DNA of 64,000 nt, from NCBI GenBank assembly GCA_963833145.1, contig CAWHWT010000006.1, forward strand, positions 33,221-97,220, in the 5' to 3' direction. The translations under genes and the position numbers were made by a program. Source of the stretch: an uncultured Acidimicrobiia bacterium (GTDB taxonomy: Bacteria; Actinomycetota; Acidimicrobiia; Acidimicrobiales; Ilumatobacteraceae). Of the stretch, positions 1,207-51,511 are shown one piece after another (position 1 is the stretch's first letter; each line of letters starts with the position of its first letter). Under the pieces are notes generated by a model that was given only the letters and a program-made list of their open reading frames with translations, had not been told where the DNA came from and did no database searches.

Positions 1207-1235
1207 ACACACGTCCCCGACGAGAGGAGCAGCAG

Positions 1236-1346
1236 ATGGCCGATAAGTCGCCACGCCAACACCAATCGAAGAAGTCAGGCAAGTCCTTGAAGGAGAAGCG
1301 AGGAGAGAAGAAGGCGAAGCAGGCCAGCAAGCGAGCGGGGTCATGA
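1236..1346 (+). CDS. 36-aa Lys/Arg-rich micro-protein, copy A (MADKSPRQHQSKKSGKSLKEKRGEKKAKQASKRAGS)
   Basis: Below the 60-aa cut-off of the ORF track; found by reading. GAGGAG lies 6 nt upstream of ATG 1236. The stop TGA 1344-1346 overlaps ATG 1343 of the next ORF (ATGA). The paralogue at 20977..21087 differs only synonymously over codons 1-30. Confidence 0.65.
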   Translation: MADKSPRQHQSKKSGKSLKEKRGEKKAKQASKRAGS

Positions 1347-1624
1347 CCGTGCAGCCGTCGGTCGACGAGCCTGAAGCCGATGACCAGCTGGTGGCGATGC
1401 TGCGTACGATCGGCGCCGGCGACCCCATCGGCGGGCAGCTTGACAGCGCGACGCTCGCCCGGCGGCTCGGTTGGCCGGCCGCGAGGACCGCGGCCGCGCT
1501 CGGTGCCGCCAAGGGCCGCCTGCTGATCTGGGGCATCCGCGTCGGAGGCACGCCCGCGCCCTGCTTCGAGGAGATCGAACTCACCGTGCAGGGTCGCCGC
1601 CTTCTCACCGCCGCCGACAGCTGA
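1343..1624 (+). CDS. Small (93 aa) conserved protein, possible winged-helix fold, copy A
   Basis: Track ORF 1343..1624. It is translationally coupled to the micro-protein. About three quarters of residues are identical by eye to ORF 21084..21374 (LDSAxLARRLGWxAARTAAxLGxAK..LLIWGIRVGGxPAPxFEEIELTVQGRRLL). The fold guess is inference only. Confidence 0.65.
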   Translation: MTVQPSVDEPEADDQLVAMLRTIGAGDPIGGQLDSATLARRLGWPAARTAAALGAAKGRLLIWGIRVGGTPAPCFEEIELTVQGRRLLTAADS

Positions 1625-1642
1625 GATCGGACCCCGCCGACT

Positions 1643-1669
1643 CGCCGCCGAGGTCACGGCCCGGCGGCG
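1643..1669. terminator. GC-rich hairpin between convergent genes (candidate bidirectional terminator)
   Basis: CGCCGCCG (1643-1650) and CGGCGGCG (1662-1669) are perfect complements with an 11-nt loop. The hairpin sits between stop 1622-1624 (+) and stop 1670-1672 (-). No U-tract. Confidence 0.35.
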
Positions 1670-3721: not shown

Positions 3722-3779
3722 GGGATCCCCCTGTCTGCAGGTATCAGTGTCCGGATCGAGTGCAATGTGCGGCCCGTGC

Positions 3780-4859
3780 TCACGTGCGCGTCCGCTCGAG
3801 GAGCGCCGCCCCGATGCTGCTGTCGGCCATGCCGTAGAACACGAAGTCGCGGCCGTCGATCGTCGCCATGGCGGTCGGGAAGACGACGTTGGGCACCGTG
3901 CCGACCCGTTCGTCGACGGTCGCGGGTTCGAGGAGCGGCTCCGCGGTGCGGGCGATGACGCGGGACGGATCGCCCGCGTCGAGCAACATCGCCCCGGCGC
4001 GGTAGACGAGCGAGCCCTGCTGCGACGGGTCGAAGCCGGGCACGACCTCGCCTTCGACTCCGTGGTGGATGAGGAGCCAGCCTTCTGGGACCCGCACGGG
4101 TGGCGGACCGGCGCCGATCTTGGCGCTCTCGTACGGGCGCTCGGGCAGGGCGACGCAGCGGTGGGCGTGGACGAGCGTCAGCGCGCGGATGTCGGCCTCG
4201 ACGTGTTCGGCCGGGACGTACGAGATCCAGATGCCGGGCCGGTCGTCGGTGAGACCGGCGGGCAGCCGCGTCGCGGCCGGCTCGAGTCCTGACATGGTCT
4301 GGTCCCACATCGGGCGGTGCAACATGGCGTAGCTCGGTACGCCGTCGGGGCCGGGGATCGGCTCCGGGAAGATCACGGCATCTTTGTTGGGGTACAGGTT
4401 GAGGTCGATGTCCATCCCGGGCTGGTAGGCGAACAGCACGGGGCCGAGTCGCTCCCACGCCTCGAGATCGCGAGAGACCGCCAGCGCGATGCGTGGACCG
4501 AGGGGGCCGAACGCGACATACGTCATCAGGTGAGCGTCGAGCCGCTCGACGAAGGTCACTCGGGGGTCTTCGACCCCGCCATGATTGGCGCCGCGTTCCC
4601 ATCCTTCGTCGGGCGCCAACACGACACCACGGCGATGGACCCGGGTCGGGACGCCGTCGTCGGTCACGACCTCGGCCAGGCCGATCCGGGACACATTGCC
4701 GGCGGCGACCAGCCGGGGCAAGAGGTGCAGCCGGCCGTCAGGCGTGTGCCCGGTCGCGGGATTGAGGACCCCCTCGACCTCCCACGGCTCGCCGGGCTCG
4801 GGAGACATGACGGTGCCGACGCGCGTCAAGCGGTACGGGATGTCGCCGTCGTCCGTCAC
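3780..4859 (-). CDS. GH130-family mannoside phosphorylase/beta-mannosidase-like protein
   Basis: 359-aa ORF with a GTG start 3 nt after the permease stop. Motifs seen: PWEVEGVLNPA, GGVEDPRVTF, MTYVAFGP, GWLLIHHGV, YRAGAMLLDAGDP, VPNVVFPT. Confidence 0.85.
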   Translation of the reverse strand: MTDDGDIPYRLTRVGTVMSPEPGEPWEVEGVLNPATGHTPDGRLHLLPRLVAAGNVSRIGLAEVVTDDGVPTRVHRRGVVLAPDEGWERGANHGGVEDPRVTFVERLDAHLMTYVAFGPLGPRIALAVSRDLEAWERLGPVLFAYQPGMDIDLNLYPNKDAVIFPEPIPGPDGVPSYAMLHRPMWDQTMSGLEPAATRLPAGLTDDRPGIWISYVPAEHVEADIRALTLVHAHRCVALPERPYESAKIGAGPPPVRVPEGWLLIHHGVEGEVVPGFDPSQQGSLVYRAGAMLLDAGDPSRVIARTAEPLLEPATVDERVGTVPNVVFPTAMATIDGRDFVFYGMADSSIGAALLERTRT

Positions 4860-4862
4860 TCG

Positions 4863-5762
4863 TCAACCCTTGACGGCGGAGCCGATGTCGCTCGTCCTGA
4901 AATGGCGCTGGAAGACGACGAACAGCACGATCACCGGTGCCGCCAACACACACGCCCCGGCGAGGATGGCTCCGAACGGGTTGGCCGCCCGGGATGCGAG
5001 GTTGGAGATGTAGTTGGCCAGCGAGACGGCGAGCGGCTGCATGTCGGCGTCCTTGGTGACGAGGAACGGCCACAGGAACTCGTTCCAGGGGCCGATGAAG
5101 GTGACCAGGGTGACCGTGAGGATCACCGGGCGGGCCAGTGGGATGGCGATGCGCCGGAGGATGGCGAACTCGCCGGCGCCGTCGATGCGGGCCGCCTCGA
5201 ACAGCTCGACGGGCAACTGGAGGAAGAACTGGCGGAAGATGAACACTGCGACCGCGCTGATGGCGAACGGCAGGATCATCCCCAAGTAGGTGTCACCGAG
5301 CCCGTAGTCCCGGACCAGCAGCACGTACAGCGGGATGATCAACAGCTGGAACGGGATGGTCTGCACGAGCAGCACGGTGGCGAACGCGACGCCGCGGCCC
5401 CGGTAGTGCAGGACGGCCAGCGAGTACCCGGCCAGCAGCCCGAAGAACAGGGTGCTGAAGACGACCGCGGCGGTGAAGATCCCCGAGTTGACCAACGATT
5501 GGAGCAGACCGATGCTTCCGTTGATGTCGCTGTAGTTCTTGGTGGTGAGGTTGGCCGGGTCCGGGAAGGCGCCGCCCACGCTGGTGTCGGGCTCCTCCTG
5601 GAGCGACCCGACGAGCATGTAATAGAACGGGAAGAGGAAAACGAAGGCGCCGATCGTGAGCGCCACCAGCCGCACGACCGAACGTTGGTGGCGAGGCTGT
5701 CGTGGTGCTGGTCTGGCTGTGGCGGCCGGGTCCACCACCACAGCGTCGATGGTGTCTGTCAC
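4863..5762 (-). CDS. Carbohydrate ABC transporter permease (MalG-like)
   Basis: 299-aa multi-TM ORF with an EAA-type loop (FEAARIDGAGEFAILRRIAIP). The GTG start overlaps the upstream permease stop (GTGA). Confidence 0.9.
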   Translation of the reverse strand: MTDTIDAVVVDPAATARPAPRQPRHQRSVVRLVALTIGAFVFLFPFYYMLVGSLQEEPDTSVGGAFPDPANLTTKNYSDINGSIGLLQSLVNSGIFTAAVVFSTLFFGLLAGYSLAVLHYRGRGVAFATVLLVQTIPFQLLIIPLYVLLVRDYGLGDTYLGMILPFAISAVAVFIFRQFFLQLPVELFEAARIDGAGEFAILRRIAIPLARPVILTVTLVTFIGPWNEFLWPFLVTKDADMQPLAVSLANYISNLASRAANPFGAILAGACVLAAPVIVLFVVFQRHFRTSDIGSAVKG

Positions 5763-6709
5763 TTCGTCCCCCTCTCAGTCACCCACTTGGCCAGGAGACT
5801 GACGATGGCCACGAAGATCACGAGGAGCACGCCGACCGCTGCCGCGAACCCGGCGTCGCCCTGTTCGATGCCTCGTTGGTACAGCACGAACACCGGTGTC
5901 GCGGACGCACCGTTGGGTCCTCCGCCACCGGTGAGCAGGTAGGGCTCGGTGAACAAGTTGGATCCGGTGATGACGGAGATGATGACGATCAGCGTGGTCG
6001 CCGGGCGGACGCCGGGCCAGGTCACGTTGCGGAACTTGCCCCAGCGGCCGGCCCCATCGATGCCGGCCGCCTCGTAGAGCTCTTTGGGGACGTTCTGCAG
6101 CGCGGCGAGGTAGAGCAGCACGTAGAACCCGAGCTGCTTCCAGGCGACGTACACCGCGATGGTCGGCATCGCCAACCTCTCGTTGATGAGGAACGCCGGG
6201 TCGGGGGCCAGCGGGCCGAGGACCCTGTTCACCAGGCCGTTGCTGCTGAACAGCCACAGCCATACCGCGATGGTCGCCACGCTCGCGGTGACGTAGGGCA
6301 CGAAGTAGGCCGTGCGGAAGAACGTGCGGAACGGGATCGCGGCGTTGAGCGCGACCGCCAGACCGATCGCCACGACCACGGTGAGCGGCACGTTGATGAC
6401 AAGGAACACGATGACGTTGCCGAAGGACTCGATCACTTGATCGTCGGTCAGCGCGGCCGTGTAGTTGTCGAACCCGACGAACGGCCGGTCGACGTCGGCA
6501 CCCGGTGCGGCGAAGAAGTACTCGTAGAACGACATCCAGACGGCGAAGCACAGCGGGAACGCGTAGATCCCCACGAAGAAGAGCGCCCACGGCGACACGA
6601 ACAGGTACCCGGTGAGTTGGCGGCGCCGCGGGTTGCGGCCACCGGTCGGCGCCGGCGTCGCCTCGACGACGCCAGCGTCCGGCCTGGGGATGTTCGCAGT
6701 GACGGCCAT
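5759..6709 (-). CDS. Carbohydrate ABC transporter permease (MalF-like)
   Basis: 316-aa multi-TM ORF with an EAA loop (YEAAGIDGAGRWGKFRNVTWP). Confidence 0.9.
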   Translation of the reverse strand: MAVTANIPRPDAGVVEATPAPTGGRNPRRRQLTGYLFVSPWALFFVGIYAFPLCFAVWMSFYEYFFAAPGADVDRPFVGFDNYTAALTDDQVIESFGNVIVFLVINVPLTVVVAIGLAVALNAAIPFRTFFRTAYFVPYVTASVATIAVWLWLFSSNGLVNRVLGPLAPDPAFLINERLAMPTIAVYVAWKQLGFYVLLYLAALQNVPKELYEAAGIDGAGRWGKFRNVTWPGVRPATTLIVIISVITGSNLFTEPYLLTGGGGPNGASATPVFVLYQRGIEQGDAGFAAAVGVLLVIFVAIVSLLAKWVTERGTK

Positions 6710-6720
6710 CTGCTCTGCGC

Positions 6721-8100
6721 TCAGCTCTCGGCGGCGAGCGTGTTGATCTCCTCGGCGGCTGCGGTCAGCGCCTCCTCAGGATCGCCTTCGCCGAAGATCA
6801 CCGACTCCGACCAGGCGTCGCGAAGGGTCTGCCAGATCTCGATCGAGTTCGCCACGTTCGGCACTTCGACGGTCCGGTCCGCCTGCTCGGCGAACGCCAC
6901 GTAGTTGGGGTTGGCCGTGAAGTAGTCGGCGTAGGTGTCCACAAGGTTGGTGCGCATCGGCATCTGACCGGTGGCCTCGAGCAGGGCCCCGTCCTGGGCC
7001 TCGCTGGTGGCGAACTTCATCACGTCCCACGCCGTGGCCTGGTTGTCACACGCGGTGAACATGCCGATCGACTTCTCGTCGCTGAACGTCTGGATCTCTT
7101 CGGGCGGCGTGCCTGTGGGGGTGGGTACGGGGACGACGCCCCAGTCGACCTTGTCCCCGTACACGGCGACCGCCCACGGCCCCACCGTGGCCATCGCCGA
7201 CAAGCCGTCGGCGAAGGCGTCCCCCGTGTGCTCCTCTCGGGGCGCGAGCCCTTCGTCGTAGATCGTCCGCCAGAGGTTGGCGACGCCGAAGCCCTCCTCG
7301 GTGGTGAAGGTGGCCTCACCATCCTCCACCAGCTGCTTCCCGCTGGCCGCGATGTACATGGGATAGAAGTCGAACCAGTTCTGGAAGAACTGGCTCGTCG
7401 GCGCGGGCCAGATCGCCGCTTGGGCGCCGCCGTCGGACACCAGCGTCCGGGACGTGGCGAGGAACTCGTCATAGGTGCTCAGCGGCGGGTTCTCGGGGTC
7501 GAGTCCGGCCTCTGTGAACATCTCCTTGTTGTAGAAGATCATCACCGGGTTGGCCTTCCAGGGCATCTGGTAGAGGTTCCCGTCGGGCGAGCGGTACTGC
7601 TCGGCCCCCTCGCCGGACCGGTCCGTCACGTAAGCGGCGCTGTCCTCGAAGCCGTCCAACGCCACTAGCCCGCCCGCCTTCTGGAACTGCGGCACCGCCG
7701 CTGGGGCGGTGTTGAAGATCAGGCACGGCGCATTCCCGGCAGTGATCGACGCGGCGATCACCGCTTCGCTGGTCTCGCCGGCCGGGATCTCCTGGGCGGA
7801 GATCTGCTCGTCGGGGTTGTCGGCGTTCCAGGCGTCCACCATCGCCTCACCCCACGCCTTCTCCTCGGTGTTGTTCGACAACCAGACGTCGATCGACCCG
7901 CGGGCGCCCAACGCACCCTCGGCCTCACCGCCACCACCATCGTCACCGGTACCGGGCGCGGTGCTACCACCAGTACCGGGTGCAGTACCACCAGTACCGG
8001 TCGCGGTAGTTCCACCACCACCTTCGTCATCGTCGTCGCCGCACGAAGCGGCGATCAACAGGATCACGGTCACCAGCGCTGCGGACTTTGAACGTCTCAT
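6721..8100 (-). CDS. Extracellular sugar-binding lipoprotein of ABC importer
   Basis: The track ORF 6721..8121 starts at TTG. I prefer ATG 8100, which follows AAGGAGGAGGA. The product starts with MRRSKSAALVTVILLIAASCG (lipoprotein-type signal), followed by a Gly/Thr/Asp-rich linker and a family-1 solute-binding-like body. Confidence 0.9.
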   Translation of the reverse strand: MRRSKSAALVTVILLIAASCGDDDDEGGGGTTATGTGGTAPGTGGSTAPGTGDDGGGGEAEGALGARGSIDVWLSNNTEEKAWGEAMVDAWNADNPDEQISAQEIPAGETSEAVIAASITAGNAPCLIFNTAPAAVPQFQKAGGLVALDGFEDSAAYVTDRSGEGAEQYRSPDGNLYQMPWKANPVMIFYNKEMFTEAGLDPENPPLSTYDEFLATSRTLVSDGGAQAAIWPAPTSQFFQNWFDFYPMYIAASGKQLVEDGEATFTTEEGFGVANLWRTIYDEGLAPREEHTGDAFADGLSAMATVGPWAVAVYGDKVDWGVVPVPTPTGTPPEEIQTFSDEKSIGMFTACDNQATAWDVMKFATSEAQDGALLEATGQMPMRTNLVDTYADYFTANPNYVAFAEQADRTVEVPNVANSIEIWQTLRDAWSESVIFGEGDPEEALTAAAEEINTLAAES

Positions 8101-8117
8101 CCGTTCCTCCTCCTTGC

Positions 8118-8561
8118 TCAATCAGTTGCTCGGTTGCCGGACGGCACCAACGTCGAGTCGTCTGCGAGCGCGAGCGTCGAACGCCGCTCGTCACCCGCGC
8201 CGCGCCAACGGGGGTGGCGATCGAAGTGATCGTCGAGGCCACATACGTCGAGGAGGTGGCGAGCGCGCCTCGAGGGCGATCGCAGCGTCAACGTCCGCGA
8301 TCGCAGGGCGAGGAATTCGCGCGCCCGGATGAACAGACGGACTGTCGCCGCGTCCATGAACTCCACCGCGCTCAGGTCGACGACGAGGTCGGCGTCATCG
8401 AGCGCGATTGCGCGCGCCATTTGCTCCGACAGGGCGGTGACCGTGGAGGCGTCGTGCTCGCCACGGAGCAGAACGACTCGATCGGCGCCGCGGCCCGCGA
8501 ACGCCGCGGGAACTACACGAGAGACGTCGCCCGACGAGTATTCGGTCAGAGCCAAGCGCAC
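8118..8561 (-). CDS. STAS-domain protein (anti-sigma-factor antagonist-like)
   Basis: 147-aa ORF. The stretch VVLLRGEHDASTVTALSEQM..LVVDLSAVEFMDAATVRLFIRAREFL is typical of SpoIIAA/RsbV-like STAS proteins. The start is uncertain (GTG 8561 or TTG 8555). Confidence 0.75.
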   Translation of the reverse strand: MRLALTEYSSGDVSRVVPAAFAGRGADRVVLLRGEHDASTVTALSEQMARAIALDDADLVVDLSAVEFMDAATVRLFIRAREFLALRSRTLTLRSPSRRARHLLDVCGLDDHFDRHPRWRGAGDERRSTLALADDSTLVPSGNRATD

Positions 8562-8944
8562 CCTCCCGGCACCAGTCGCTTCGAATTGCGCGGTACCGGG
8601 GTCTCGAGCATCGCTCCCGAGCCGGCGGGTCGCCGGCTCAACACGTCAGGGCGCTTGCCCTGTCATTGTCACCATACACCCATGACCCTGCAGCGGATAG
8701 GGGCGCCGAGAGGGCGACGCGCGACTTAGCTGACTCGGCCGCGATCGCGGCATTCCCCGCCACTTTGCTAGCGGATCGACGCCTTCGTCGACGGTCGGCG
8801 TCCGTGGTTTGTCGCACTGGCGTCCGACATTGGGCGGGCCGGGTGTGCCGGACTGCGGGTTGGGGCATACTGGTTGTCCCGGGCATGCGTTTGACCTGGT
8901 CCCTGCTGAGCGCCTTCCCCGACGTTCGGAGGTGACCATGCGGA

Positions 8945-9712
8945 GTGCCCTTCACTCAGACCGAGCCGTCCGGTCGCGCGCTTCGGGTCATGCCTGATCG
9001 CCGGCTGTTGCGTCTGCTGGCCCGTTTGTCGGCTGATGACGGTCATCCGGCCGGTACGACCCGGCTGTGCGTGGCGTGTGCGGCGGTCACGGAGATGACC
9101 GGGGCGGGGATCATGTTGATGGTTGGTGACGGGCCCCGTGGCTCGATCTGCACGACCGACGCGGTGAGCACGTTGATCGAGGACCTGCAGTTCACGCTCG
9201 GGGAGGGCCCGTGTGTGGACGCCCACCGCGAGCAACGTCCTGTGGTCGAGCCCGATCTGGCCAACCCCGACGTCGGCCGCTGGGGTTCGTTCACGCCGCC
9301 GGTGCTGGCGTCGGGGGCACGAGCGGTGTTCGGATTCCCAGTTTCGGTCGGAGAGGTGCGGGTGGGCGCCCTGAACTTGTATCGCGACCGTCCGGGCCCG
9401 CTCACCGACGACCAGCACGCCGACGCGGTCTTGATCGCCGGCATCGCGGCCCGGGCGATCGTCGAGATGCAAGCCGACGCCGAGCCTGGCGTCCTGGGCG
9501 CCGCACTGGAGGTGGGCACGAACTTCCAGTTCGTTGTCCACCAAGCGGCCGGGATGGTCGCCGTTCAACTCGGTATCGACGTCGCCGAGGCGACACTGCG
9601 ACTCCGCGCTCACGCCTTCAGCACCGATCGCCTCGTCGCCGACGTGGCCCGGGACGTCGTCGCCCGCCGGCTGCGGTTCGACCCCTCCGACGGCGAACCC
9701 GCCAACTCGTAA
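8945..9712 (+). CDS. GAF + ANTAR domain RNA-binding regulator (paralogue 1)
   Basis: 255-aa ORF. The GAF-like part contains GAGIMLM, LGEGPCVDA, GFPVSVGEVRVGALNLY. The ANTAR-like tail is VVHQAAGMVAVQLGIDVAEATLRLRAHAF. The start is uncertain (8945 GTG or ATG 8990). Confidence 0.8.
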   Translation: MPFTQTEPSGRALRVMPDRRLLRLLARLSADDGHPAGTTRLCVACAAVTEMTGAGIMLMVGDGPRGSICTTDAVSTLIEDLQFTLGEGPCVDAHREQRPVVEPDLANPDVGRWGSFTPPVLASGARAVFGFPVSVGEVRVGALNLYRDRPGPLTDDQHADAVLIAGIAARAIVEMQADAEPGVLGAALEVGTNFQFVVHQAAGMVAVQLGIDVAEATLRLRAHAFSTDRLVADVARDVVARRLRFDPSDGEPANS

Positions 9713-13351: not shown

Positions 13352-14719
13352 ATGGGTAGCTCAGCGAGCTTGTCCAGCGTTCGTTCGAGCCTGTGGTTCA
13401 TTCCGGTGTTGTGTGTGCTGGCCGGCGTGCTCGTGTCGATTGGCACGATCGCGGTGGATCGGGCCGCGGGATTCGAGCTCATTCCGCGCTGGTTGACCGG
13501 AGGACCGGATGCGGCGATGGGCATCCTGACGACCATCGCGGTGTCGATGGTGTCGTTGGCCACGTTGGTGCTGACCATCACGATGGTCGTGGTGCAGTTG
13601 GCGATGGGCCAGTTCTCCCCGCGGATCGTGCAGACGTTCCTGCGGGACAAGCCCAGCCAGTTGGCGATCGGGCTGTTCGTGGCGACGTTCGCGCATGCCA
13701 TGTTGGCGATGCGGGAGGTGCAGTTCGACGGGGAGGGCCAGGTTCCGGGGATCGCCATCGCCGTCGGGTATGTGCTCGTCTTGACCAGCATCGCCATGTT
13801 GGTGATGTACGTCCATCACATCGGCCGGTCGCTGCGAGTTTCGGCATTGATCGAGTTGGTCGGGAACGACACCCGCCGCCTGCTCGACGAGGTCTACCCC
13901 GACATCCTGGCCGCTCGAGAGCCTGACCAGCACGAGATCGTCGCGCCCCGCTCGGGCGTGTTGATCTCAGTCGACCGGCAGCGTCTCGTCGACATCGCGA
14001 CGGCGGCGGATTGCGTCCTGCACGTGGTGCCGGCCGTCGGTGGCTTCGTGCCGGCCGGGGCGGCGCTGATCCGAGTCGAGGGCGACCCGCATGACCTGGA
14101 TCGGGACGGCGCGACAGCGGCGCTGCAGTCGGGTCTGGAACGCACACTCGACGAGGACGTGGCCTACGGGTTCAGGATGCTCGTCGACATGGGCGAGCGC
14201 TCCCTGTCCGAGTCCGCCTTCCTCGACCCGACGACCGCCGTGCAGTGCATCGACCGGCTCCACGACGGGCTACGACAGTTGGCTGGACGCCGCCTCCCCG
14301 ACGGCCGCCTGCATGATGCCGACGGCCGCCTGCGGGTGACAGTTCCAGCGATGAGCTGGGACGCCTACGTCCACCTCGCCTTCGATGAGATCCGCCTCGC
14401 CGGGGGCAGCTCCCCCCAGGTCAGCCGCCGACTGATCGCAGCACTTGACGACCTCCTCGAGATCGCACCGGCGGAGCGACGACCGGTGCTCGCCGAACAA
14501 CTCCGACTTCTCACCGACGCGGTCCGAAACACCGATCGCGGCGCCGAGGATCGTGAGATGGCCACCCAACCCGACAGCCAAGGGATCGGAGTGGCCATCA
14601 ACGGCGCCGCCGCCCGCCAATCCCTCACACACCGCGTCGCGGACGCTGGGGAAGACGGCGTGGGACTCATCGCCGACCGACTCTTGGAACCGCCCCGGCC
14701 GGTCACTCGACGCCGTTGA
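13352..14719 (+). CDS. DUF2254-like membrane protein
   Basis: 455 aa. The N-terminal TM region contains the MGQFSPRIVQTFLRDKPSQ motif, followed by a soluble C-terminal domain. Confidence 0.8.
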   Translation: MGSSASLSSVRSSLWFIPVLCVLAGVLVSIGTIAVDRAAGFELIPRWLTGGPDAAMGILTTIAVSMVSLATLVLTITMVVVQLAMGQFSPRIVQTFLRDKPSQLAIGLFVATFAHAMLAMREVQFDGEGQVPGIAIAVGYVLVLTSIAMLVMYVHHIGRSLRVSALIELVGNDTRRLLDEVYPDILAAREPDQHEIVAPRSGVLISVDRQRLVDIATAADCVLHVVPAVGGFVPAGAALIRVEGDPHDLDRDGATAALQSGLERTLDEDVAYGFRMLVDMGERSLSESAFLDPTTAVQCIDRLHDGLRQLAGRRLPDGRLHDADGRLRVTVPAMSWDAYVHLAFDEIRLAGGSSPQVSRRLIAALDDLLEIAPAERRPVLAEQLRLLTDAVRNTDRGAEDREMATQPDSQGIGVAINGAAARQSLTHRVADAGEDGVGLIADRLLEPPRPVTRRR

Positions 14720-14786: not shown

Positions 14787-15680
14787 TCACGATGAGACCT
14801 TCGGGCCTCCCTGCCGTTGGAGATTGGCGTGCTCGACGAGGGCGTCGATCTCTGCCGTTCGGCTGGCGTACCGCTCGAAGATGCGCCTGCTGTTAGCGAC
14901 ACGGTTGCGCTCTCGTACGTGGGGGGCGAAGATCATCGTTCCGCCGTCCATGGCGTAGTGCCCCGCTGCGCCTTTGAGCGGCACGAAGCTGTAGCCCACC
15001 CGGTACCCCTTGGTCCACGCGCGCAGGCACAGTTCGCTCTCGAAGCAGATGCCGGGATCACCGGGGGCTGAGAAGCTGTGGTCCCAGCCGCCCAGCTCTT
15101 GATAACTGGTGCGACGGACGAAATAGGGCCCGATGTTCACATGGTGCACGTAGCGAAATTCGCTCCGACCCCAGAACGGCACGGCCACCGCCGGATCGGG
15201 GTCGAAACTCTCGAACCCCATGAATCCACCGATGATCGCCAGCGCGGGATCGGCCGAGAAGTGGTCGAGGGCGGTCTGGACCCAGGTGGGCTCGTCGGGG
15301 ATGACGTCGTCATCCTGCACAAGGCACACGATCTCGGAGCGGGCCCAGCTGATCGCTCGGTCGGTGACTCGAATCTCATGGAGGTCGTTTGAGTGGATGA
15401 GGAAGTCGTTCGGTCGGTCGAGGTGTCCCAACCACCGGTCGCGGGAGCCGTCGACGGACCCGTCGTCGCACACGATGAGCTCGTGCGCGCCGGCGGCTCG
15501 CAGACCGTCGACGATCTGATCGATGTTGGAGACCCGGTTGAACGAGTGGACGATGAAGGCCAGCCTCGGTCGTTCTTGGTAGACGAAGCCCGATGCTCGA
15601 CGCGCCGCCTTGGCTGCCCGGACCCGCTCGACCACCTCGGGTTCGACGGGCTCAGGTGAGGCGTCCATGGGTGTTGACAT
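14787..15680 (-). CDS. Family-2 glycosyltransferase
   Basis: 297 aa. The stretch FIVHSFNRVSNIDQIVDGL..ELIVCDDGSVDGS, with a later DDD, fits a GT-A fold. It is the third gene of a minus-strand operon and overlaps the upstream gene by 29 nt. Confidence 0.8.
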   Translation of the reverse strand: MSTPMDASPEPVEPEVVERVRAAKAARRASGFVYQERPRLAFIVHSFNRVSNIDQIVDGLRAAGAHELIVCDDGSVDGSRDRWLGHLDRPNDFLIHSNDLHEIRVTDRAISWARSEIVCLVQDDDVIPDEPTWVQTALDHFSADPALAIIGGFMGFESFDPDPAVAVPFWGRSEFRYVHHVNIGPYFVRRTSYQELGGWDHSFSAPGDPGICFESELCLRAWTKGYRVGYSFVPLKGAAGHYAMDGGTMIFAPHVRERNRVANSRRIFERYASRTAEIDALVEHANLQRQGGPKVSS

Positions 15681-16605
15681 GGGGAAGATCGGGAGCGTTC
15701 AGCAGTACGGTCCGGGCGAGGCTCGAGCCGTTGTGGACAAGATCGTCGCATCGGCTGAGTAGGAGGTACTCGAGGACGGCCTCCTCGCCGTTGCGGGCGG
15801 CCAGATCGCGATCGCCGGCAATGTATGCAGGCATCAGCCAACCGGTGGGGCCGTGCCCAGCCGCGTCGCCGCCCCGGTGGCGCACGCTGTCGTAGGCGAT
15901 CACACGTCCGGGGAACTCGCCGCGAAGGAATGCCACGGAGGATTCGTCGTCGGACGCCACGAAGACCTTGGCGGTCGGGGTCACGTCGAGCCGCCGCTGA
16001 ATCTCGACCACGTACCGGTCGAGAAGAAGTGAGTTCTGCCGGTGCGGCCGCACCTCATGACTCGAGACAGCATCGGTCCCCCGGACGTGGACGCCGATGA
16101 CGTGATGGCCGGCCATGTACTTGGCGCCGAACCGCAGCACCTCGCGCTTGATGTGCGGTCGAGGACGGACGTATCGGTCGAGCACCTGCTTCGCTTGTCT
16201 GCGGACGAGTTCGTCGGGATCGTCCCACTCGTACGGGATCGCGAGTGCGGCTCCGCTCAGCTCGGCGTGATCGCCGAAGTGACACGAGACGAACGAACCG
16301 CCTCGCGTCGCATATCCGAGCTCGAACGCGGAGGGCGGCTCCACCGCGATCCGTGCCCGCAGTTCCGCAGGAACTCGGTCGGCGGGATGCGTAGGGATCA
16401 GGGGCTCGAAGTAGTACTCCCACACCGTGCTCCGGCCGCGATGCCCGTTAGGCGTCCAGTAGCAGGTTCGCGAGCGGAAATCGACGACCGGTACGCGCCC
16501 TTCGGCCAGCGCCCACGGGATGTTGGCGATCACCTGCTGGAGCAGCGAGAAGAGCCCGACGTCTCGCTCGGAGATGACGTGCAGACGGCCCGGCGCAGGT
16601 CTCAA
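15652..16605 (-). CDS. NodZ-like / GT23-superfamily (alpha-1,6-fucosyltransferase-type) glycosyltransferase
   Basis: 317 aa. It is collinear with my recollection of rhizobial NodZ: VISERDVGLFSLL..VVDFRSRTCYW..YFEPL, IGVHVRGTD, VFVASDDESS, EEAVLEYLLLSRCDDLVHNGSSLARTV. Confidence 0.7.
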   Translation of the reverse strand: MRPAPGRLHVISERDVGLFSLLQQVIANIPWALAEGRVPVVDFRSRTCYWTPNGHRGRSTVWEYYFEPLIPTHPADRVPAELRARIAVEPPSAFELGYATRGGSFVSCHFGDHAELSGAALAIPYEWDDPDELVRRQAKQVLDRYVRPRPHIKREVLRFGAKYMAGHHVIGVHVRGTDAVSSHEVRPHRQNSLLLDRYVVEIQRRLDVTPTAKVFVASDDESSVAFLRGEFPGRVIAYDSVRHRGGDAAGHGPTGWLMPAYIAGDRDLAARNGEEAVLEYLLLSRCDDLVHNGSSLARTVLLNAPDLPHVNTHGRLT

Positions 16606-16642
16606 CGTCCGGCTGCGGGGACGGGCCGCCTACCGCGGCTCC

Positions 16643-17674
16643 TCATGAGACGAACTCCTCTGACACCGGTCCGGTGAGCATTGGCGAGGGGACTGACCCG
16701 CCGAGCCGGCGGGCATGGCACACACGGTCGGCGATCCACCGGTACGTGGGTTGCAGTCCCTGACGGATCGTGGTCGACGGCTCCCAGCCGAGCACGGCGC
16801 GCAGCCTCCGGTTGTCCGAGTTGCGGCCGCGTACGCCTTGCGGGCCGTTGACATGGCGGAGCGTGATGCCCGGCTTGCCGGACACCTCGATGACCGCTCG
16901 GGCGAGCTCGTTGATCGTCATGACCTCCTCGGTGCCGAGGTTCAGCGGTTCCTGGTGGTCGGATCGCATCAGCCGGTGGATCCCCTCCACGCAGTCGTCC
17001 ACGTAGCAGAACGATCTCGTTTGCTCGCCGTCGCCCCAAATCTCGATTTCGCCACCCGGCTCCACCGCCGCCACCTTGCGGCACAGCGCAGCCGGCACCT
17101 TCTCCCGACCGCCGTCGTACGTGCCACGCGGGCCGTAGATGTTGTGGAAGCGGACGATACGAGTCGGCAAACCAAACTCGGCCGTGTAATACAGGCAGAG
17201 GCGCTCGCCCATCAGCTTCTCCCACCCGTAGGCGTCCTGCGGGTTGGCGGGATAGGCATCCTCCTCGGCCAACGCGATGTCGCCCGCCTCGGACTGCAAG
17301 TGCTCGGGGTAGACGCACGCCGAGGAGCTATAGAGGTACCGCCGCACTCCGTTGCCACGGGCCGCCTCGAGCGTGTTGATGTCGATTAGCGCATTGTTCC
17401 GCAGGATCGTGCCGTGGTGCCCGGAGATGAACCCCATGCCTCCCATGTCGGCGGCCAGCGCGTACACCTCGTCAATGCCAGCCGTCGCCCGGAGGCACTC
17501 GTCGCGGCTGCGGAGGTCACGCAGCTCGAACTCGTCCGAATCAGATTCGGTGAACTCCGGTGGGTGGACGTCGACTCCGCGCACCCAGTAGCCATTTCGC
17601 TTGAGGTAGCTGACGAGGTGGTGACCGATGAACCCGCCGGCTCCGGTCACCAACACCCGCGTGCGCGTCGTCAC
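16643..17674 (-). CDS. GDP-mannose 3,5-epimerase-like NAD-dependent epimerase
   Basis: Start taken at GTG 17674, 5 nt after GGAGG. Motifs match remembered plant GME almost block for block: VTGAGGFIG, LAADMGGMGFI, SSACVYPE, PQDAYGWEKL, RFHNIYGPRGTYDGGREKVPAALCRK, WGDGEQTRSF, GVRGRNSDN. Confidence 0.8.
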   Translation of the reverse strand: MTTRTRVLVTGAGGFIGHHLVSYLKRNGYWVRGVDVHPPEFTESDSDEFELRDLRSRDECLRATAGIDEVYALAADMGGMGFISGHHGTILRNNALIDINTLEAARGNGVRRYLYSSSACVYPEHLQSEAGDIALAEEDAYPANPQDAYGWEKLMGERLCLYYTAEFGLPTRIVRFHNIYGPRGTYDGGREKVPAALCRKVAAVEPGGEIEIWGDGEQTRSFCYVDDCVEGIHRLMRSDHQEPLNLGTEEVMTINELARAVIEVSGKPGITLRHVNGPQGVRGRNSDNRRLRAVLGWEPSTTIRQGLQPTYRWIADRVCHARRLGGSVPSPMLTGPVSEEFVS

Positions 17675-18180
17675 GCCCGCCTCCGTCCGTGCCGTCGGGC
17701 ACTCAGGCCGGTGAGGCGAACGAGGGATTGTGCGCCGCCGCGACCGACGCTCTCGCCGGCCCGGGAGGTACCCGACGGCTGATCGTCGGACCAAACGCGT
17801 ACGGCTCGTGCCGTCGACGGCGTCCGGTGCCGGCGGATCATGCCCCCACAAGCGACGACGTCGGCCTTGGCTCGGTAGCGCTGCTTCTTACGTGGGAGGC
17901 GTGTAGCGGTCTGGCGCACAGCGTCACTCGTCACTGGCGCGGCGGCGGCGCATCCCCGGCTCGGACCAGGCGCAGGGCAGGTGATGTGAAGACGCTGCAC
18001 CCGCCGGTACCGACACGGACGCCGACGATGAGGACGATTCCATCGAGAACGTGCCACCGAGATCGCCGCGGCGATGACGAGAGAGATGGCGAGAATCCAA
18101 AGCAGCGTGGCCACGAGGCCTCCTGAAGTCACCGATCGCACCGTTGCGACCTCGTTCCAGGTAGCCACCTCTCCGGGCGG

Positions 18181-18882
18181 TTGTGTACCCCCCTAAGGGT
18201 GACTACCGTCGGCCATGTGAACGCCGCAGCCCGGCCGATTCGCGTGGCGCTCGTCGACGACTACGACGTCGTCGTCATCGGTCTGGCGCACCTGTTCGAT
18301 CCGTACCGGGACCGCATCGTCATCGCCGAGCTCGACACCAACCGGCCCGTCGTCGACGAGGTCGATGTCGTCCTGTACGACTCCTTCGCCCAGCCCGAGG
18401 CTGATCACGACGACCTCGCGGTCCTCGTCGACAACCCCCACGCCCGTCACGTCGTCGTCTACACGTGGAACTTCCACCCGGCGCTCATCGAGAGCGCCCT
18501 CGCCAAGGGCGCCAGCGGATACCTGTCCAAGACACTCCCCGCCCGCGACCTCGTGACGGCGATCGAGTCGATCGCAGACGGTGAGGTCATCCTCAGCGAC
18601 GCGCCCAGACGCTCCCGATCGCCGGCCGGACTCGACTGGCCGGGACGCAGCGAGGGCCTCACCGACCGCGAAGCCGAGGTCCTCGCCCTCATCACCCAAG
18701 GCAAGACCAACGTCGAGATCGCAGCGGTGATGTACCTCAGCGTCAACACCATCAAGTCCTACATCCGCTCGGCGTACCACAAGATCGGCGTGACGACGCG
18801 ACCCCACGCCATTCTGTGGGGCATCAAGCACGGCTTTCAGCCGGACTACCACCGCATCGACCACTGGCGCGGCGGGCCCTGA
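18181..18882 (+). CDS. NarL/LuxR-family response regulator (no adjacent kinase)
   Basis: The receiver-like N-terminus is IRVALVDDYDVV..VDVVLYDSF..VVVYTW..YLSK. The C-terminal HTH is LTDREAEVLALITQGKTNVEIAAVMYLSVNTIKSYIRSAYHKIG. The exact start is uncertain (TTG 18181, GTG 18199 or GTG 18217). Confidence 0.85.
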   Translation: MCTPLRVTTVGHVNAAARPIRVALVDDYDVVVIGLAHLFDPYRDRIVIAELDTNRPVVDEVDVVLYDSFAQPEADHDDLAVLVDNPHARHVVVYTWNFHPALIESALAKGASGYLSKTLPARDLVTAIESIADGEVILSDAPRRSRSPAGLDWPGRSEGLTDREAEVLALITQGKTNVEIAAVMYLSVNTIKSYIRSAYHKIGVTTRPHAILWGIKHGFQPDYHRIDHWRGGP

Positions 18883-19062: not shown

Positions 19063-19104
19063 CGGGCACGCTTCCCGCCACGGTCGGTCCCGTGGTTAGA
19101 TCGG
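18952..19104 (+). repeat. 153-bp direct repeat, copy 2
   Basis: See 9602..9754. It lies between the response-regulator stop (18882) and the start of the second GAF-ANTAR gene (19163). Confidence 0.9.
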
Positions 19105-19162
19105 AGTGTCGGCGCCACCAGCGACCACGGGGCACGGGGCGGCCGGCGACGGGAGGTCGAAC

Positions 19163-19891
19163 ATGACACGAGAGACGGTCTTAGCCCGCACGATGGTCGA
19201 GCTCGCCGACAACCTGGTCGACGACTTCGACGTCGTCGAACTGCTCACCACGCTGGCCGATCGCTGCGTCGAGGTGCTCGACGTCGATGCCGCCGGCATC
19301 ATGCTCGTGGGACCCAACGGTGAACTCCACCTGATGGCCTCCTCGAGCGAGACGATGCGGCTCGTCGAGCTGTTCGAACTGCAATCCCGGCAGGGACCCT
19401 GCCAGGACTGTTTCCGCACCGGCCGACCGGTCGTCAACCGGGACCTCACCAGCGACGACCTGCGCTGGCCCCGCTTCGCCGCCGTCGCGGTCAGCGAAGG
19501 ATTCCGCGCCGCCGACGCGCTCCCGATGCGGCTGCGCACCACCACCATCGGCGCCCTCAATCTGTTCCGCTCCACCACCGGCTCCCTCAACGACGACGAC
19601 GTCACCGCCGCCCAAGCGCTCGCCGACATCGCCACCATCGCGATCGTCCAACACCGCGCCGCGATCGACGCCCAAGTCCTCAACCAACAGCTCACCGAGG
19701 CGCTCACCAGCCGCATCGTCATCGAACAAGCCAAAGGAATGGTCGGCGAACGACGCCACCTGCCCATGGACGAGGCCTTCACCGTGCTCCGCCACCACGC
19801 CCGCCGCAACAACCTGCGCCTCGCCGACGTCGCCCGCCGCATCGTCGACAGCACCATCGACCCCGACACCCTCGACCTTCCACCCCACTGA
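19163..19891 (+). CDS. GAF + ANTAR domain RNA-binding regulator (paralogue 2)
   Basis: ATG 19163 lies 6 nt after GGGAGG. The GAF-like part contains AAGIMLVGPNGEL, SRQGPCQDC, LPMRLRTTTIGALNLF. The ANTAR motif is RIVIEQAKGMVGERRHLPMDEAFTVLRHHARRNNLRLADVA. Confidence 0.85.
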   Translation: MTRETVLARTMVELADNLVDDFDVVELLTTLADRCVEVLDVDAAGIMLVGPNGELHLMASSSETMRLVELFELQSRQGPCQDCFRTGRPVVNRDLTSDDLRWPRFAAVAVSEGFRAADALPMRLRTTTIGALNLFRSTTGSLNDDDVTAAQALADIATIAIVQHRAAIDAQVLNQQLTEALTSRIVIEQAKGMVGERRHLPMDEAFTVLRHHARRNNLRLADVARRIVDSTIDPDTLDLPPH

Positions 19892-21087: not shown

Positions 21088-21374
21088 CGGGCGATCGAAC
21101 GGTCGTCGATTCCGAGGCCGATGACCAGCTCGTGATGTTGCGCACGATCGGTGACGGCGACTCCGCTGCCGGCCAGCTCGACAGCGCGGCACTCGCGCGG
21201 CGCCTCGGCTGGACAGCCGCCCGGACGGCGGCAGTGCTCGGTACCGCCAAGAGCAGCCTGCTCATCTGGGGCATCCGCGTTGGCGGCGCGCCCGCGCCGG
21301 TCTTCGAGGAGATCGAGTTGACCGTGCAAGGCCGCCGCCTCCTCACCGCCACCGACGGCCGACATCGCCGGTAG
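21084..21374 (+). CDS. Small (96 aa) conserved protein, possible winged-helix fold, copy B
   Basis: Track ORF 21084..21374, a paralogue of 1343..1624. Confidence 0.65.
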   Translation: MTGDRTVVDSEADDQLVMLRTIGDGDSAAGQLDSAALARRLGWTAARTAAVLGTAKSSLLIWGIRVGGAPAPVFEEIELTVQGRRLLTATDGRHRR

Positions 21375-21598
21375 AGTGCTTGAACACTCTTGGACGAGTC
21401 GCCTCGCTTGGGCAGGACGGCCGAAGTTGCTGTCGCCCCGTGCAGGCTCGACGCCTCTTCCGAGCCGCCAGGTCGAGGAGGCCGGATGCCTATTCCTTGG
21501 TTCCGACTTTTTGTCGGGATCGATCGAGGGCGGCTGCAGTGCGGAAGGATCCCGTCTCCTCGCCTGCTTGTGCACAACGAGCTAGTCGACACCTGGCG

Positions 21599-22738
21599 AT
21601 GACGGGCCGCCGCCGGTTGCGCTACGGCATCGTCAGCGCATGGCAGGCCGAAGACACGGCCCCGGCGCGCTTCGCCACCGCCCTTGCCGATTCGCTGGGC
21701 GGCCGGAACGACATCGCGCGAATCGCGTCCTCGACGCCCGCACCGCTCGATGCGCATCCGAGCCTCTCGATGGCGTCGCCCCGTTCCCTCGCAACGATGG
21801 CGAGCGAGTTGAACGGGTGCGACCTCGCGATCATCCACCACGGCATCGACGAGCTCTCGAGCGGTGACGGTGCGACAGTCCTCAGCTCCCGCCTGATCGA
21901 AGTCATCGACCTCGTGCACGTTCCCACGATCGTCGTGCTCCACCACGTGCCGGCCGACCCGACCGACGATCAACGCAGCATGCTCGCTCACGCGGGTCGG
22001 TCGGCCGACGCTGTCGTCGTCACCACCGCGCCGGCCGGTATCAGGTTGACCAGCGTCTACGACGTCGACCCGACCGCGCTGTGGCTGATTCGATGCAATA
22101 CGCGACAACGTCAAGGCGTCTCGCCGGAATCGCGACGAGCAGTCGTGGTCACGTGGGGGGTCGTCGGTCCGGGTAGCGGCATCGAGTGGATGATCGATGC
22201 GATGGAGCACTTGTCGGCCCTCGACGTTCGATACGTGGTCGCGGGTCCGTCACCGGACGACATGGCTGACGACGAAGCTGAGAGCTACCGCGACACGCTC
22301 GTCCGGCGATGCTGGAGTCACCGCGTCCCCGCGTACGTCTCGCTCGGGGACGACGCCGACCAGACAGCGATGGGGGAGACGTTGCGCAGCGCTGTCGCTG
22401 TGGTCATGCCACAGGACACCGCCGTGAACTACATGGACGGCCTGCTCGAGGAACTCGTTGCGGCGGAGGTCCCCATCGTGGCCACCGAGGATGCAGTGGT
22501 GTCGGCGGGTCTGCCCGCTGACGCCGTGGTGCTCGTTCCGCCGCAGGATCCCAGTGCGCTCGCCGACGCCGTTCTGCGCCTCATGATCGATCCGCATCTC
22601 GCCGAGTCGATCGTGCACCGTGCGGCGCGCATGTCGCAACCGGCCACGCCGGGAGGTATGGCGGGTCGCTTCGCTCGCGTGACCCATGCTGCGATGCGTT
22701 CGTCCTTGACCACCAGTCCGATATCCGCGTCCAGTTGA
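21599..22738 (+). CDS. GT4-like (GT-B fold) glycosyltransferase, divergent
   Basis: The track ORF starts at 21380. I prefer ATG 21599 (MTGRRRLRYGIVSAW). The C-terminal half has a GT-B-like layout (VVVTWGVVGPGSGIEW.., VPIVATED.., LVPPQDPSALADAVLRL), but the usual EX7E motif is not obvious. Confidence 0.65.
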   Translation: MTGRRRLRYGIVSAWQAEDTAPARFATALADSLGGRNDIARIASSTPAPLDAHPSLSMASPRSLATMASELNGCDLAIIHHGIDELSSGDGATVLSSRLIEVIDLVHVPTIVVLHHVPADPTDDQRSMLAHAGRSADAVVVTTAPAGIRLTSVYDVDPTALWLIRCNTRQRQGVSPESRRAVVVTWGVVGPGSGIEWMIDAMEHLSALDVRYVVAGPSPDDMADDEAESYRDTLVRRCWSHRVPAYVSLGDDADQTAMGETLRSAVAVVMPQDTAVNYMDGLLEELVAAEVPIVATEDAVVSAGLPADAVVLVPPQDPSALADAVLRLMIDPHLAESIVHRAARMSQPATPGGMAGRFARVTHAAMRSSLTTSPISASS

Positions 22739-32149: not shown

Positions 32150-32357
32150 GTCGGGTGGTCCCTTCGGTCGGATCCGCCGGTCGTTCCGGCGGGGGATGCC
32201 GAGATCGCAATCCAGCACCACTGCCGTTACGGCGCGTCGGTGCCGATCGGGTCGCGATATGCGCCCGATGTAGGGAAAACCCGTAGGCGTACGTCCCCGG
32301 TGTGTCGATGTGCGTGATCCGCCCTACGCTCGGGGGCGTACGGGAGGGAGACAGCGG

Positions 32358-42106: not shown

Positions 42107-42165
42107 CCCCGGCGCCCGGTGCAACGCCCCGCCTGGCCCACGGACGACGCGTAACATCCCGGTCG

Positions 42166-49416: not shown

Positions 49417-49809
49417 TCAGCCGTTGACCGCTTCGACGGTGCTGATGTCGGTGAGCGTCGGAAGCGGGGAGCGCGCCGCCATCGCCGTGTCCTCCGTCGC
49501 CCCCGGCACGTAGAGGTGACCGGAAGCTTCGACGACCTTGCCCTCGAGGTCCGCCAACTCGTCGTCGGGGCGCGCGCCGAGCTCGACGAAGCCGCCGTCG
49601 GTGAGCCGGACGTGGGCGATCTGTTTCACCGAGCGCCACCCGCCGTCCCCGTCGGGGACCTTCATGGTGTGGCCGCCGAGGTCCTGGACGGTGTACGTGC
49701 CCTGCACCGTGACGTCCTCGTCGACGTGTTCGGCGACCTCCTGCGAGGAACTGAGCACGCCGTCGCGCACCGGCACCTCTTCCGCGTCGGAGGAGCGGCG
49801 CTTCCTCAC
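49417..49809 (-). CDS. Small acidic protein translationally coupled to the DUF4157-type gene (candidate immunity protein)
   Basis: 130 aa. GTG 49809-49807 overlaps the upstream TGA 49808-49806. GC3 bias is strong throughout. I recognised no motif. Confidence 0.65.
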   Translation of the reverse strand: MRKRRSSDAEEVPVRDGVLSSSQEVAEHVDEDVTVQGTYTVQDLGGHTMKVPDGDGGWRSVKQIAHVRLTDGGFVELGARPDDELADLEGKVVEASGHLYVPGATEDTAMAARSPLPTLTDISTVEAVNG

Positions 49810-51410: not shown

Positions 51411-51511
51411 CGCTTCCCTCCGGGACTCGTCCCCGACGCTCGGGTTCGACAGTACCCGGCCGCGGTGGGCCGAGTCCATGGTGCGGTCGGGAAGATCCGG
51501 CCCACGCTCGC

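Follow-up and report, generated by a model that had tools for sequence, protein, structure and literature searches.

A gene for a predicted GDP-mannose 3,5-epimerase linked to genes for a candidate GDP-L-hexose transferase of the NodZ/FUT8 fold and a GT2 glycosyltransferase in an uncultured acidimicrobiial bacterium and in other bacterial phyla

A 64,000-nt stretch of the genome of an uncultured Acidimicrobiia bacterium of the family Ilumatobacteraceae (positions 33,221 to 97,220 of contig CAWHWT010000006.1, assembly GCA_963833145.1; hereinafter, the window) carries a cassette of three genes on the reverse strand, which encode, in the order of transcription, a homologue of plant GDP-mannose 3,5-epimerase (GME; 16643..17674, 343 aa), a GT23-related, NodZ/FUT8-like transferase (15652..16605, 317 aa; hereinafter, the NodZ-like protein) and a soluble GT2 transferase of the GT-A fold (14787..15668, 293 aa). 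The enzymes belong to known folds and families. What is new is that the genes of a GT23-related clade are tied to GME or a GME-like epimerase instead of gmd and fcl, within a cassette that includes an obligate GT2 partner, is spread across phyla and lacks a characterized product. The pairing of a canonical GME with a candidate transferase is widespread, extending over hundreds of protein clusters defined at 90% identity. On balance, we lean towards the view that the three genes form a self-contained cytoplasmic glycosylation module, in which GME would provide the donor, the NodZ-like enzyme would transfer the sugar and GT2 would perform a neighbouring step. Literature searches on the cassette, on bacterial L-galactosyltransferases, on GT23 in actinobacteria and on Kribbella wall sugars yielded no description of such a system, and no dedicated bacterial L-galactosyl- or L-gulosyltransferase was encountered.

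The first cassette gene very probably encodes an ordinary GME orthologue, judging from its sequence. In a search of solved structures, the protein matched Arabidopsis GME (AtGME; PDB 2c59) with an E-value of 3.5e-107 and 362 bits over residues 5-327, and a second plant GME (8sg0) with 360 bits, whereas the next classes of short-chain dehydrogenases/reductases (SDR) reached only 109 bits (GDP-fucose synthase), 106 bits (UDP-glucuronate decarboxylase, UXS) and 97 bits or less (GalE-like proteins). The preliminary description of this stretch, which had recognized a plant-type GME from its motifs, is thus borne out, and the protein groups with GME rather than with 4-epimerases, decarboxylases or GDP-fucose synthase. 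The identity to AtGME is 51% over 310 aligned residues. The Pfam Epimerase domain covers residues 7-247 (175.7 bits), and the extended SDR fold includes the N-terminal glycine-rich NAD+ motif, VLVTGAGGFIGHH. Each of the motifs quoted in that description, namely LAADMGGMGFI, SSACVYPE, PQDAYGWEKL, RFHNIYGP..GGREKVPAALCRK, WGDGEQTRSF and GVRGRNSDN, was found in the translation, and the other features, too, lie where it had placed them. The Ser...Tyr-x3-Lys triad is contained in the segments SSSAC and DAYGWEK, the counterparts of ASSAC and DAYGLEK in AtGME. Furthermore, SSACVYPE, with the Cys acid (C145 in AtGME), and GGREKVPAA, with the Lys base (K217), align column for column with the plant enzyme, and GVRGRNSDN, with the Arg (R306), is identical in the two proteins. 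These are the residues that set GDP-mannose 3,5-epimerases apart from GDP-fucose synthase and GalE, the Lys base being replaced by His in GMER/GDP-fucose synthase and the Cys-acidifying Arg by Lys in GMER (PMC8787198). NCBIfam holds no GME model, and the best-scoring model for the window protein was Fcl, with 137 bits against a cut-off of 500.

GME had been described as uncommon in bacteria. This holds for older isolate-based databases, in which 43 bacterial GME homologues were counted versus 766 of GMD and 573 of GER, that is, GME was approximately 15-fold rarer (PMC3220709), but not for public metagenome collections, where close homologues of the window protein are abundant. Many of these already bear the JGI name GDP-D-mannose 3',5'-epimerase, including the closest one, P0271 (344 aa, 100% coverage). 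Bacterial GMEs have rarely been studied, and the only one characterized as such in the literature that we found is the Methylacidiphilum enzyme, MfGM35E (PMC6678494). The window protein shares with AtGME (2C59) and MfGM35E (EC 5.1.3.18) the extended SDR fold, the glycine motif, the Ser/Tyr/Lys triad, the Cys acid, the Lys base and the Arg, but it comes from a soil actinobacterium, shows no link to ascorbate synthesis, and its activity is a predicted one. The genomic context of MfGM35E has been read as related to lipopolysaccharide (LPS) (PMC6678494), whereas the window GME belongs to a fixed three-gene cassette with two transferases.

The NodZ-like protein, encoded by the next gene, contains the GT23-type donor-binding fold and the His-x-Arg motif, in agreement with its earlier description as collinear with NodZ. 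At the sequence level, the match to GT23 is weak but specific, and strict membership in this family is borderline. The Pfam NodZ model yielded a marginal 29.3 bits (cut-off 28.3) and FUT8_N_cat, with 18.4 bits, stayed under its cut-off of 27.6. A HMMER search of the PDB matched FUT8 chains (E ~7e-6) and NodZ (E = 1e-4), and a profile of 21 family sequences matched NodZ 2hhc with an E-value of 3.3e-7. In the AlphaFold2 model, residues 130-317 are mostly confident, apart from the loops at 177-192 and 246-262 (pLDDT <50), and the top 50 Foldseek matches of this C-terminal domain are all fucosyltransferases that use GDP-fucose (NodZ, FUT8, POFUT1 and POFUT2), with an E-value of 4e-7 for NodZ 3six. 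In motif I, GVHVRGTD of the NodZ-like protein is aligned with GVHVRRTD of FUT8 and GVHVRHGN of NodZ, and the aligned segment extends to VASDD, the counterpart of LATDD in FUT8. Residues H173 and R175, which align with His363 and Arg365 of FUT8, the motif I contacts to the guanine and the beta-phosphate, are invariant in 21 homologues, as are D178, E184, D219, E279 and S294, along with a long C-terminal block, EYLLLSxC..HNGSSLARTVLL. In FUT8, the acidic and Ser residues of motifs II and III are Asp409/410, Asp453 and Ser469. By pattern and spacing, E279 and S294/S295 (invariant or nearly so) may match Asp453 and Ser469, a tentative assignment that we draw from Foldseek coverage; the C-terminal 77 aa had no match in the PDB, and motif III could not be aligned residue by residue. 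All fucosyltransferases share structural counterparts of His363, Arg365, Asp453 and Ser469, which bind GDP (bioRxiv 10.1101/2020.02.14.949818).

Taken together, the Foldseek, motif and profile matches, along with the gene linkage, suggest that the NodZ-like protein works like a GDP-beta-L-hexose transferase of the NodZ/FUT8 fold. It shares with the alpha-1,6-fucosyltransferases NodZ (2HHC/3SIX) and FUT8 the C-terminal Rossmann donor domain, the His-x-Arg motif I and, putatively, an acidic motif II and a Ser-rich motif III, and resembles rhizobial NodZ also in size (317 versus 330 aa) and in being soluble and cytoplasmic. The differences are substantial as well: the identity is ~20%, with a Pfam score barely at the threshold and Ala at the position of FUT8 Lys369; SH3 and coiled-coil domains are lacking, and confidence in the modelled N-terminal domain is low; and the gene is tied to GME or a GME-like SDR, not to gmd/fcl or nod genes.

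The third gene encodes a GT2 protein, as had been noted, with 38.8 bits for the Pfam GT2 domain (PF00535; cut-off 23.3). Its sequence had no match in the PDB, and a Foldseek search with the AlphaFold2 model (pTM 0.76) returned generic GT-A neighbours, namely Leptospira 6p61, SpsA, K4CP, TarS, RmlT and WrtF, with E-values of 1e-7 to 1e-9 for 6p61, SpsA, WrtF and K4CP. The motifs D69-G-S and Q118-D-D-D are invariant, in line with the DxD metal/donor motif expected of GT-A enzymes. Among these neighbours, the fucosyltransferase WrtF of Rhizobium tropici (PDB 9OMH and related entries; E ~6e-8) shows that a GT-A enzyme is able to use a GDP-beta-L-sugar, but the identity to the window GT2 is 15-18%, no better than for SpsA or K4CP, with no sign of shared specificity. 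The combination of a GT2 with a GT23-type L-sugar transferase, both of which would act in the cytoplasm on one small acceptor, is by analogy reminiscent of NodC (GT2) and NodZ (GT23) in Nod-factor synthesis. However, the window GT2 is a 293-aa soluble GT-A protein, whereas NodC is a membrane-embedded processive chitin-oligomer synthase, and there are no further nod-type genes.

The three genes are tightly packed. GME begins with GTG, preceded at ~6 nt by a GGAGG ribosome-binding site, and is separated by 37 nt from the NodZ-like gene, for which a TTG start is assigned and a longer form is excluded because of an in-frame TAG just 5' of it. The NodZ-like and GT2 genes overlap by 17 nt if GT2 starts at 15668, in agreement with the called product P0391 (100% identical, 293 aa), or by 29 nt if the ATG at 15680, chosen previously and also possible, is used, which gives 297 aa. 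No terminator-like or Rfam element was detected inside the three-gene block in terminator and Rfam scans. In the window, where the G+C content is ~69%, all three open reading frames (ORFs) show codon-position GC of the coding type (GC3 0.79-0.86). None of the three proteins has a transmembrane segment (the maximum 19-residue Kyte-Doolittle mean is 1.4).

To place the cassette in a broader context, we scanned one genome per GTDB species and obtained 56 loci, in which synteny was assessed by tblastn plus motif counts. The NodZ-like family itself is large, with 704 relatives at E <=1e-3 in a database clustered at 90% identity and 1510 clusters among representatives at 50% identity; nearly all of these relatives are unnamed or annotated as 'hypothetical protein'. 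Most of the loci belong to Actinomycetota (Kribbella, Pseudonocardiales, Geodermatophilaceae, Propionibacteriaceae, Acidimicrobiia, Solirubrobacterales and Thermoleophilia), and other carriers belong to Acidobacteriota, Gemmatimonadota, Chloroflexota, Verrucomicrobiota, Alpha-, Beta- and Gammaproteobacteria and Myxococcota. Binning errors may affect some of the short carrier contigs, but the spread is also borne out by contigs several hundred kb long. In 43 of the 56 loci, the NodZ-like gene has a gene of the window GT2 family as its neighbour, always on the downstream side and in 41 loci immediately so, and this pair is the stable core of the cassette. The two are fused into a single polypeptide in at least two independent cases, P0122 (606 aa) and P0144 (585 aa), in which the GT2 parts are, respectively, 59% and 40% identical to the window GT2. 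Two other proteins, P0124 (767 aa) and P0145 (1091 aa), consist of tandem NodZ/FUT8-like domains, and P0145 additionally carries a domain of the alpha-1,2-fucosyltransferase family GT11.

Canonical GME, recognized by the motif GG[RK]EK.PAA, is present in 21 of the 56 loci, in 17 of which it lies directly upstream of the NodZ-like/GT2 pair; the GME identity is 55-81%. A second architecture, found in L032, L038 and L045, combines GME (47-48% identity) and a NodZ-like gene with two distant NodZ/FUT8-like paralogues and lacks the window GT2 family, and in L060, GME (53% identity) is located near weak NodZ-like matches only. The association of GME with the NodZ-like family is thus strengthened by 21 syntenic loci and by the existence of two cassette architectures. 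Look-ups with GME as the starting point returned the same cassette as those that started from the NodZ-like protein. In Alteromonas sp. KUL42 (L045, 26-5991, at a contig end), a weak Wzy_C-like gene, a GT2, GME (47%) and three tandem NodZ/FUT8-like genes lie together in an arrangement that resembles a surface-polysaccharide cluster and whose glycan could contain several L-hexose residues.

The genes that flank the cassette are otherwise unrelated between carriers. A bifunctional ManC (GMP_PMI, 690 bits) adjoins it in L052 (8110-9597), which supports a supply of GDP-mannose, and a Methyltransf_24 gene follows GT2 in three non-actinobacterial loci (L020, 8011-8868; L026, 4616-5485; L031, 7984-8856), where the cassette product may be O-methylated. 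ABC-2 transporters occur at a few loci, and one of them follows the cassette in Kribbella sancticallisti. Beyond these three kinds of genes, no recurrent neighbour was found in the loci examined. A search of sequencing runs recovered near-identical DNA of the window cassette only from soil and fertilizer metagenomes, all DNA and no RNA, and the carrier contigs and metagenome-assembled genomes (MAGs) likewise come largely from soil-type samples. Judged from its best synteny matches, the window probably stems from an Acidimicrobiia-like soil actinobacterium.

The following route would be consistent with these observations. GME, an NAD+-dependent SDR, would equilibrate GDP-D-mannose with GDP-beta-L-galactose and GDP-beta-L-gulose, a step strongly suggested by its sequence. 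The NodZ-like enzyme would bind the resulting GDP-beta-L-hexose via the conserved His-x-Arg together with Ser and acidic residues, as its fold, motifs and linkage suggest, and would transfer the L-sugar with inversion, yielding an alpha-L-glycoside; irreversible transfer would pull the unfavourable epimerase equilibrium forward. The soluble GT2 would catalyse the directly preceding or following step on that acceptor, as the invariant adjacency and the natural fusions imply. If GT-B enzymes are a guide, the acceptor would bind to the N-terminal half of the NodZ-like protein, and given that this half is as conserved as the donor domain, the acceptor is probably conserved across phyla. In the window, no flippase, polymerase, initiating transferase or exporter adjoins the cassette; with no flippase, polymerase or initiating transferase attached, the product would be either a cytoplasmic or small-molecule glycoconjugate, or a decoration on a lipid-linked or envelope glycan made elsewhere. 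Pfam scans of ~46 likely coding ORFs across the window revealed no gmd, fcl, manB or manC, in line with the earlier remark that gmd and fcl are lacking, and the gene context points to the GME product as the donor, rather than to GDP-beta-L-fucose, from which GT23 enzymes form alpha-1,6-Fuc on GlcNAc.

Several observations weigh against this scheme. Apart from the marginal score with which the NodZ-like protein matches GT23, the position of FUT8 Lys369 is occupied by an invariant Ala179, the candidate base E184 lies in a loop one residue beyond the aligned Glu373 of FUT8 (FUT8 and NodZ themselves diverge in this loop), and the AlphaFold2 model is unreliable in its N-terminal half (pLDDT <50, shallow alignment). 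GT2 itself could be the user of the GDP-L-sugar. Moreover, the NodZ-like/GT2 pair lacks an SDR within 6 kb on several long contigs (L011, L020, L036 and L050), and in a Pseudonocardiales MAG represented by three independent assemblies, a GME pseudogene, frameshifted and without its first ~96 codons (L042, 5188-5831; the same as in L003-L005), stands beside apparently intact NodZ-like and GT2 genes, indicating that GME is not strictly required in cis. In at least 11 loci, for instance, L031 (4920-5996), L033 (7872-8969), L039 (7925-9076) and L052 (4868-5950), the pair is adjoined by a different, GME-like SDR. The preliminary interpretation is partly supported. Of this reading, in which the NodZ-like enzyme transfers L-galactose or L-gulose made by its neighbour, the linkage of GME, the GT23-like transferase and GT2 stands, but the pair also occurs with the other SDR, without any SDR or, once, beside a GME pseudogene.

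The divergent SDR, found in Solirubrobacterales, Thermoleophilia and some Proteobacteria, keeps the Cys of ASSAC, the YGWAK segment and, usually, the Arg, and has a 7-residue deletion; at the position of GGREK in GME, it reads RENESHAVI, with His as in GMER. Its assignment as Fcl, which would have implied a natural swap between fucose and galactose donors, was rejected, given that it scored 71-93 bits against a cut-off of 500 and that its best solved relative is GME (119 bits); RmlB and GalE, too, remained below the NCBIfam cut-offs. From its sequence, the divergent SDR may be another kind of GDP-hexose 3,5-epimerase. No alignment column draws a clean line between the NodZ-like proteins found with GME and those found with the divergent SDR, and there is, accordingly, no sign that the two groups use different donors.

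The main rival explanation is that the NodZ-like protein is an ordinary L-fucosyltransferase fed by gmd and fcl genes located elsewhere, with GT2 consuming the GME product, or with two different L-sugars added by the two transferases. All solved structural neighbours of the NodZ-like protein use GDP-L-fucose, the pair persists without an adjacent GME, and two GME products are matched by two transferases. Nevertheless, we consider this scenario unlikely. GDP-beta-L-fucose can serve as a donor for GT-A enzymes, and Foldseek matched GT2 with WrtF, but the similarity to WrtF is no better than that to generic GT-A proteins, such as SpsA. The co-location of GME with NodZ-like paralogues in L032, L038 and L045, where the window GT2 family is missing, further weakens the assignment of the GME product to GT2, and there is neither gmd nor fcl among the window ORFs scanned, while in related loci none of the neighbouring SDRs examined is a canonical Fcl. 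Adjacency of three functionally unrelated genes by chance, in turn, is already refuted by synteny: dozens of loci keep this gene order although their flanks are unrelated, successive genes are almost contiguous or overlap, and the two gene fusions arose independently.

If the donor is indeed a GME product, L-galactose is, by analogy, most likely the sugar that would be transferred. L-galactose is 6-hydroxy-L-fucose, and GDP-L-galactose (GDP-L-Gal) equals GDP-L-fucose at every stereocentre, whereas L-gulose differs at C3. GDP-L-Gal is a documented donor for fucosyltransferases, FUT8 among them (PMC8787198), and the GT23 enzyme FUT8 of the mouse reportedly transfers L-Gal from it (Ohashi 2017, cited in PMC8787198). 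An L-gulose glycoside, formed if the transferase drained the GDP-L-gulose that GME makes as a side-product, a route proposed for bleomycin and archaeal L-gulose lipids, appears unlikely as well, although bleomycin, an actinobacterial product, is known to contain L-gulose derived from GME (PMC6678494), and sequence cannot separate the two sugars. Bleomycin also exemplifies the tailoring of secondary metabolites, in which BlmG (L-gulose) or, in the case of A201A, a pair of GME and a GDP-L-galactose mutase operate. As would be the case in the window, a GME homologue of an actinobacterium supplies a GDP-L-sugar to a dedicated transferase in these pathways, and besides LPS, antibiotic biosynthesis is the only role discussed for bacterial GME (PMC6678494). 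We nonetheless regard such a role as very improbable for the window cassette, because its flanks are variable and non-biosynthetic: no genes for non-ribosomal peptide synthetases, polyketide synthases or nucleoside antibiotics were found in the 64-kb window or in the related loci inspected, and the three genes stay together while their surroundings change wholly from carrier to carrier. Furthermore, the transferase is of another type than in bleomycin and A201A, and the cassette crosses phyla, being present in Acidobacteriota, Proteobacteria and Verrucomicrobiota.

Upstream of the cassette, a 506-nt intergenic region (17675..18180) separates the GME start from a divergently transcribed gene for a LuxR/GerE response regulator (18181..18882, forward strand) and is the presumed promoter region of both. 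The protein matches Pfam GerE with 55.6 bits, whereas its receiver domain (20.4 bits) is below the cut-off, and the NCBIfam MadR/MctR-like models give 70-75 bits, far under their cut-offs. Its description as an orphan regulator, divergent and ~500 nt away, is accurate, with no histidine kinase among the window ORFs scanned, but synteny with the cassette is limited to close relatives (L002, L043, L044 and L062, the NodZ-like protein of L062 being 95% identical to that of the window), so the association is specific to this lineage. An apparent presence in 16 loci, which would have made LuxR a part of the system, proved to be an artefact of shadow ORFs inside the GT2 gene. In the window lineage, LuxR may regulate the cassette, but it does not belong to the conserved module. 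The intergenic region is 72% identical over 216 nt to the matching region of L002. Promoter, terminator and Rfam scans of 14.0-19.5 kb yielded nothing above chance, and no sigma-70 consensus promoter was found in the 506 nt.

The same region contains the remnant of a small membrane-protein ORF. Within 17671-18168 on the reverse strand, and especially at 18114-18040, a perfect AGGAGG ribosome-binding site precedes a GTG at 18114, from which the translation begins VATLLWILAISLVIAAAISVARS and resembles a called 47-aa two-helix membrane protein of L002 (8682-8825). The second half of the L002-type protein is readable in the window only in another frame, which looks like a frameshift, and the in-frame continuation, devoid of coding GC3 bias, ends at a TGA that overlaps the GME start codon. 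On the other side, the cassette converges with a DUF2254 membrane-protein gene (13352..14719, forward strand).

Farther away, positions 1-8121 of the window harbour two genes of the beta-mannoside phosphorylase family GH130 and a three-component ABC sugar-uptake system; no link between this mannoside-utilisation locus, ~7 kb away, and the cassette was found. Two GAF-ANTAR regulators of the RNA-binding antiterminator type (8936-9712 and 19100-19891) are located on either side of the cassette region, and a GT4 glycosyltransferase (21155-22738) is encoded 3.5 kb past the LuxR gene. The window also encodes a 1176-aa signalling protein with a double zinc ribbon, an adenylate/guanylate cyclase domain and an AAA_16 ATPase (32274-35804, forward strand), a 1023-aa STAND/NB-ARC ATPase with a C-terminal LuxR helix-turn-helix (39467-42538, reverse strand) and a lone 636-aa protein with an eCIS core domain (PF13699, 88.9 bits; 49806-51716, reverse strand).

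Should the functional reading of the cassette prove wrong, ordinary glycan genes would remain. Kribbella strains, among them K. sancticallisti JCM 14969 and Kribbella sp. ALI-6-A, are cultivable carriers and make the cassette directly testable. We tentatively entertain a broader possibility, namely that a hitherto unrecognized GT23-related clade switched its donor from GDP-L-fucose to GDP-L-galactose or GDP-L-gulose and, together with a dedicated GT2, became a portable cross-phylum cytoplasmic module that, in many uncultured bacteria of soil, builds a conserved L-galactose-containing glycoconjugate (a small molecule, or a decoration on an envelope lipid or glycan), which would be the first dedicated bacterial L-galactosyltransferase system, served in other phyla by the His-based lineage of GME-like epimerases. 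The coupling of an epimerase with a transferase has been highlighted as a way round the poor equilibrium of GME (PMC8787198), and the cassette, if it functions as proposed, would offer a natural enzyme pair for making L-galactosides. It would also represent a new donor specificity in the NodZ/FUT8 fold and predict an L-hexose glycoconjugate in soil Actinomycetota, Acidobacteriota and other bacteria.

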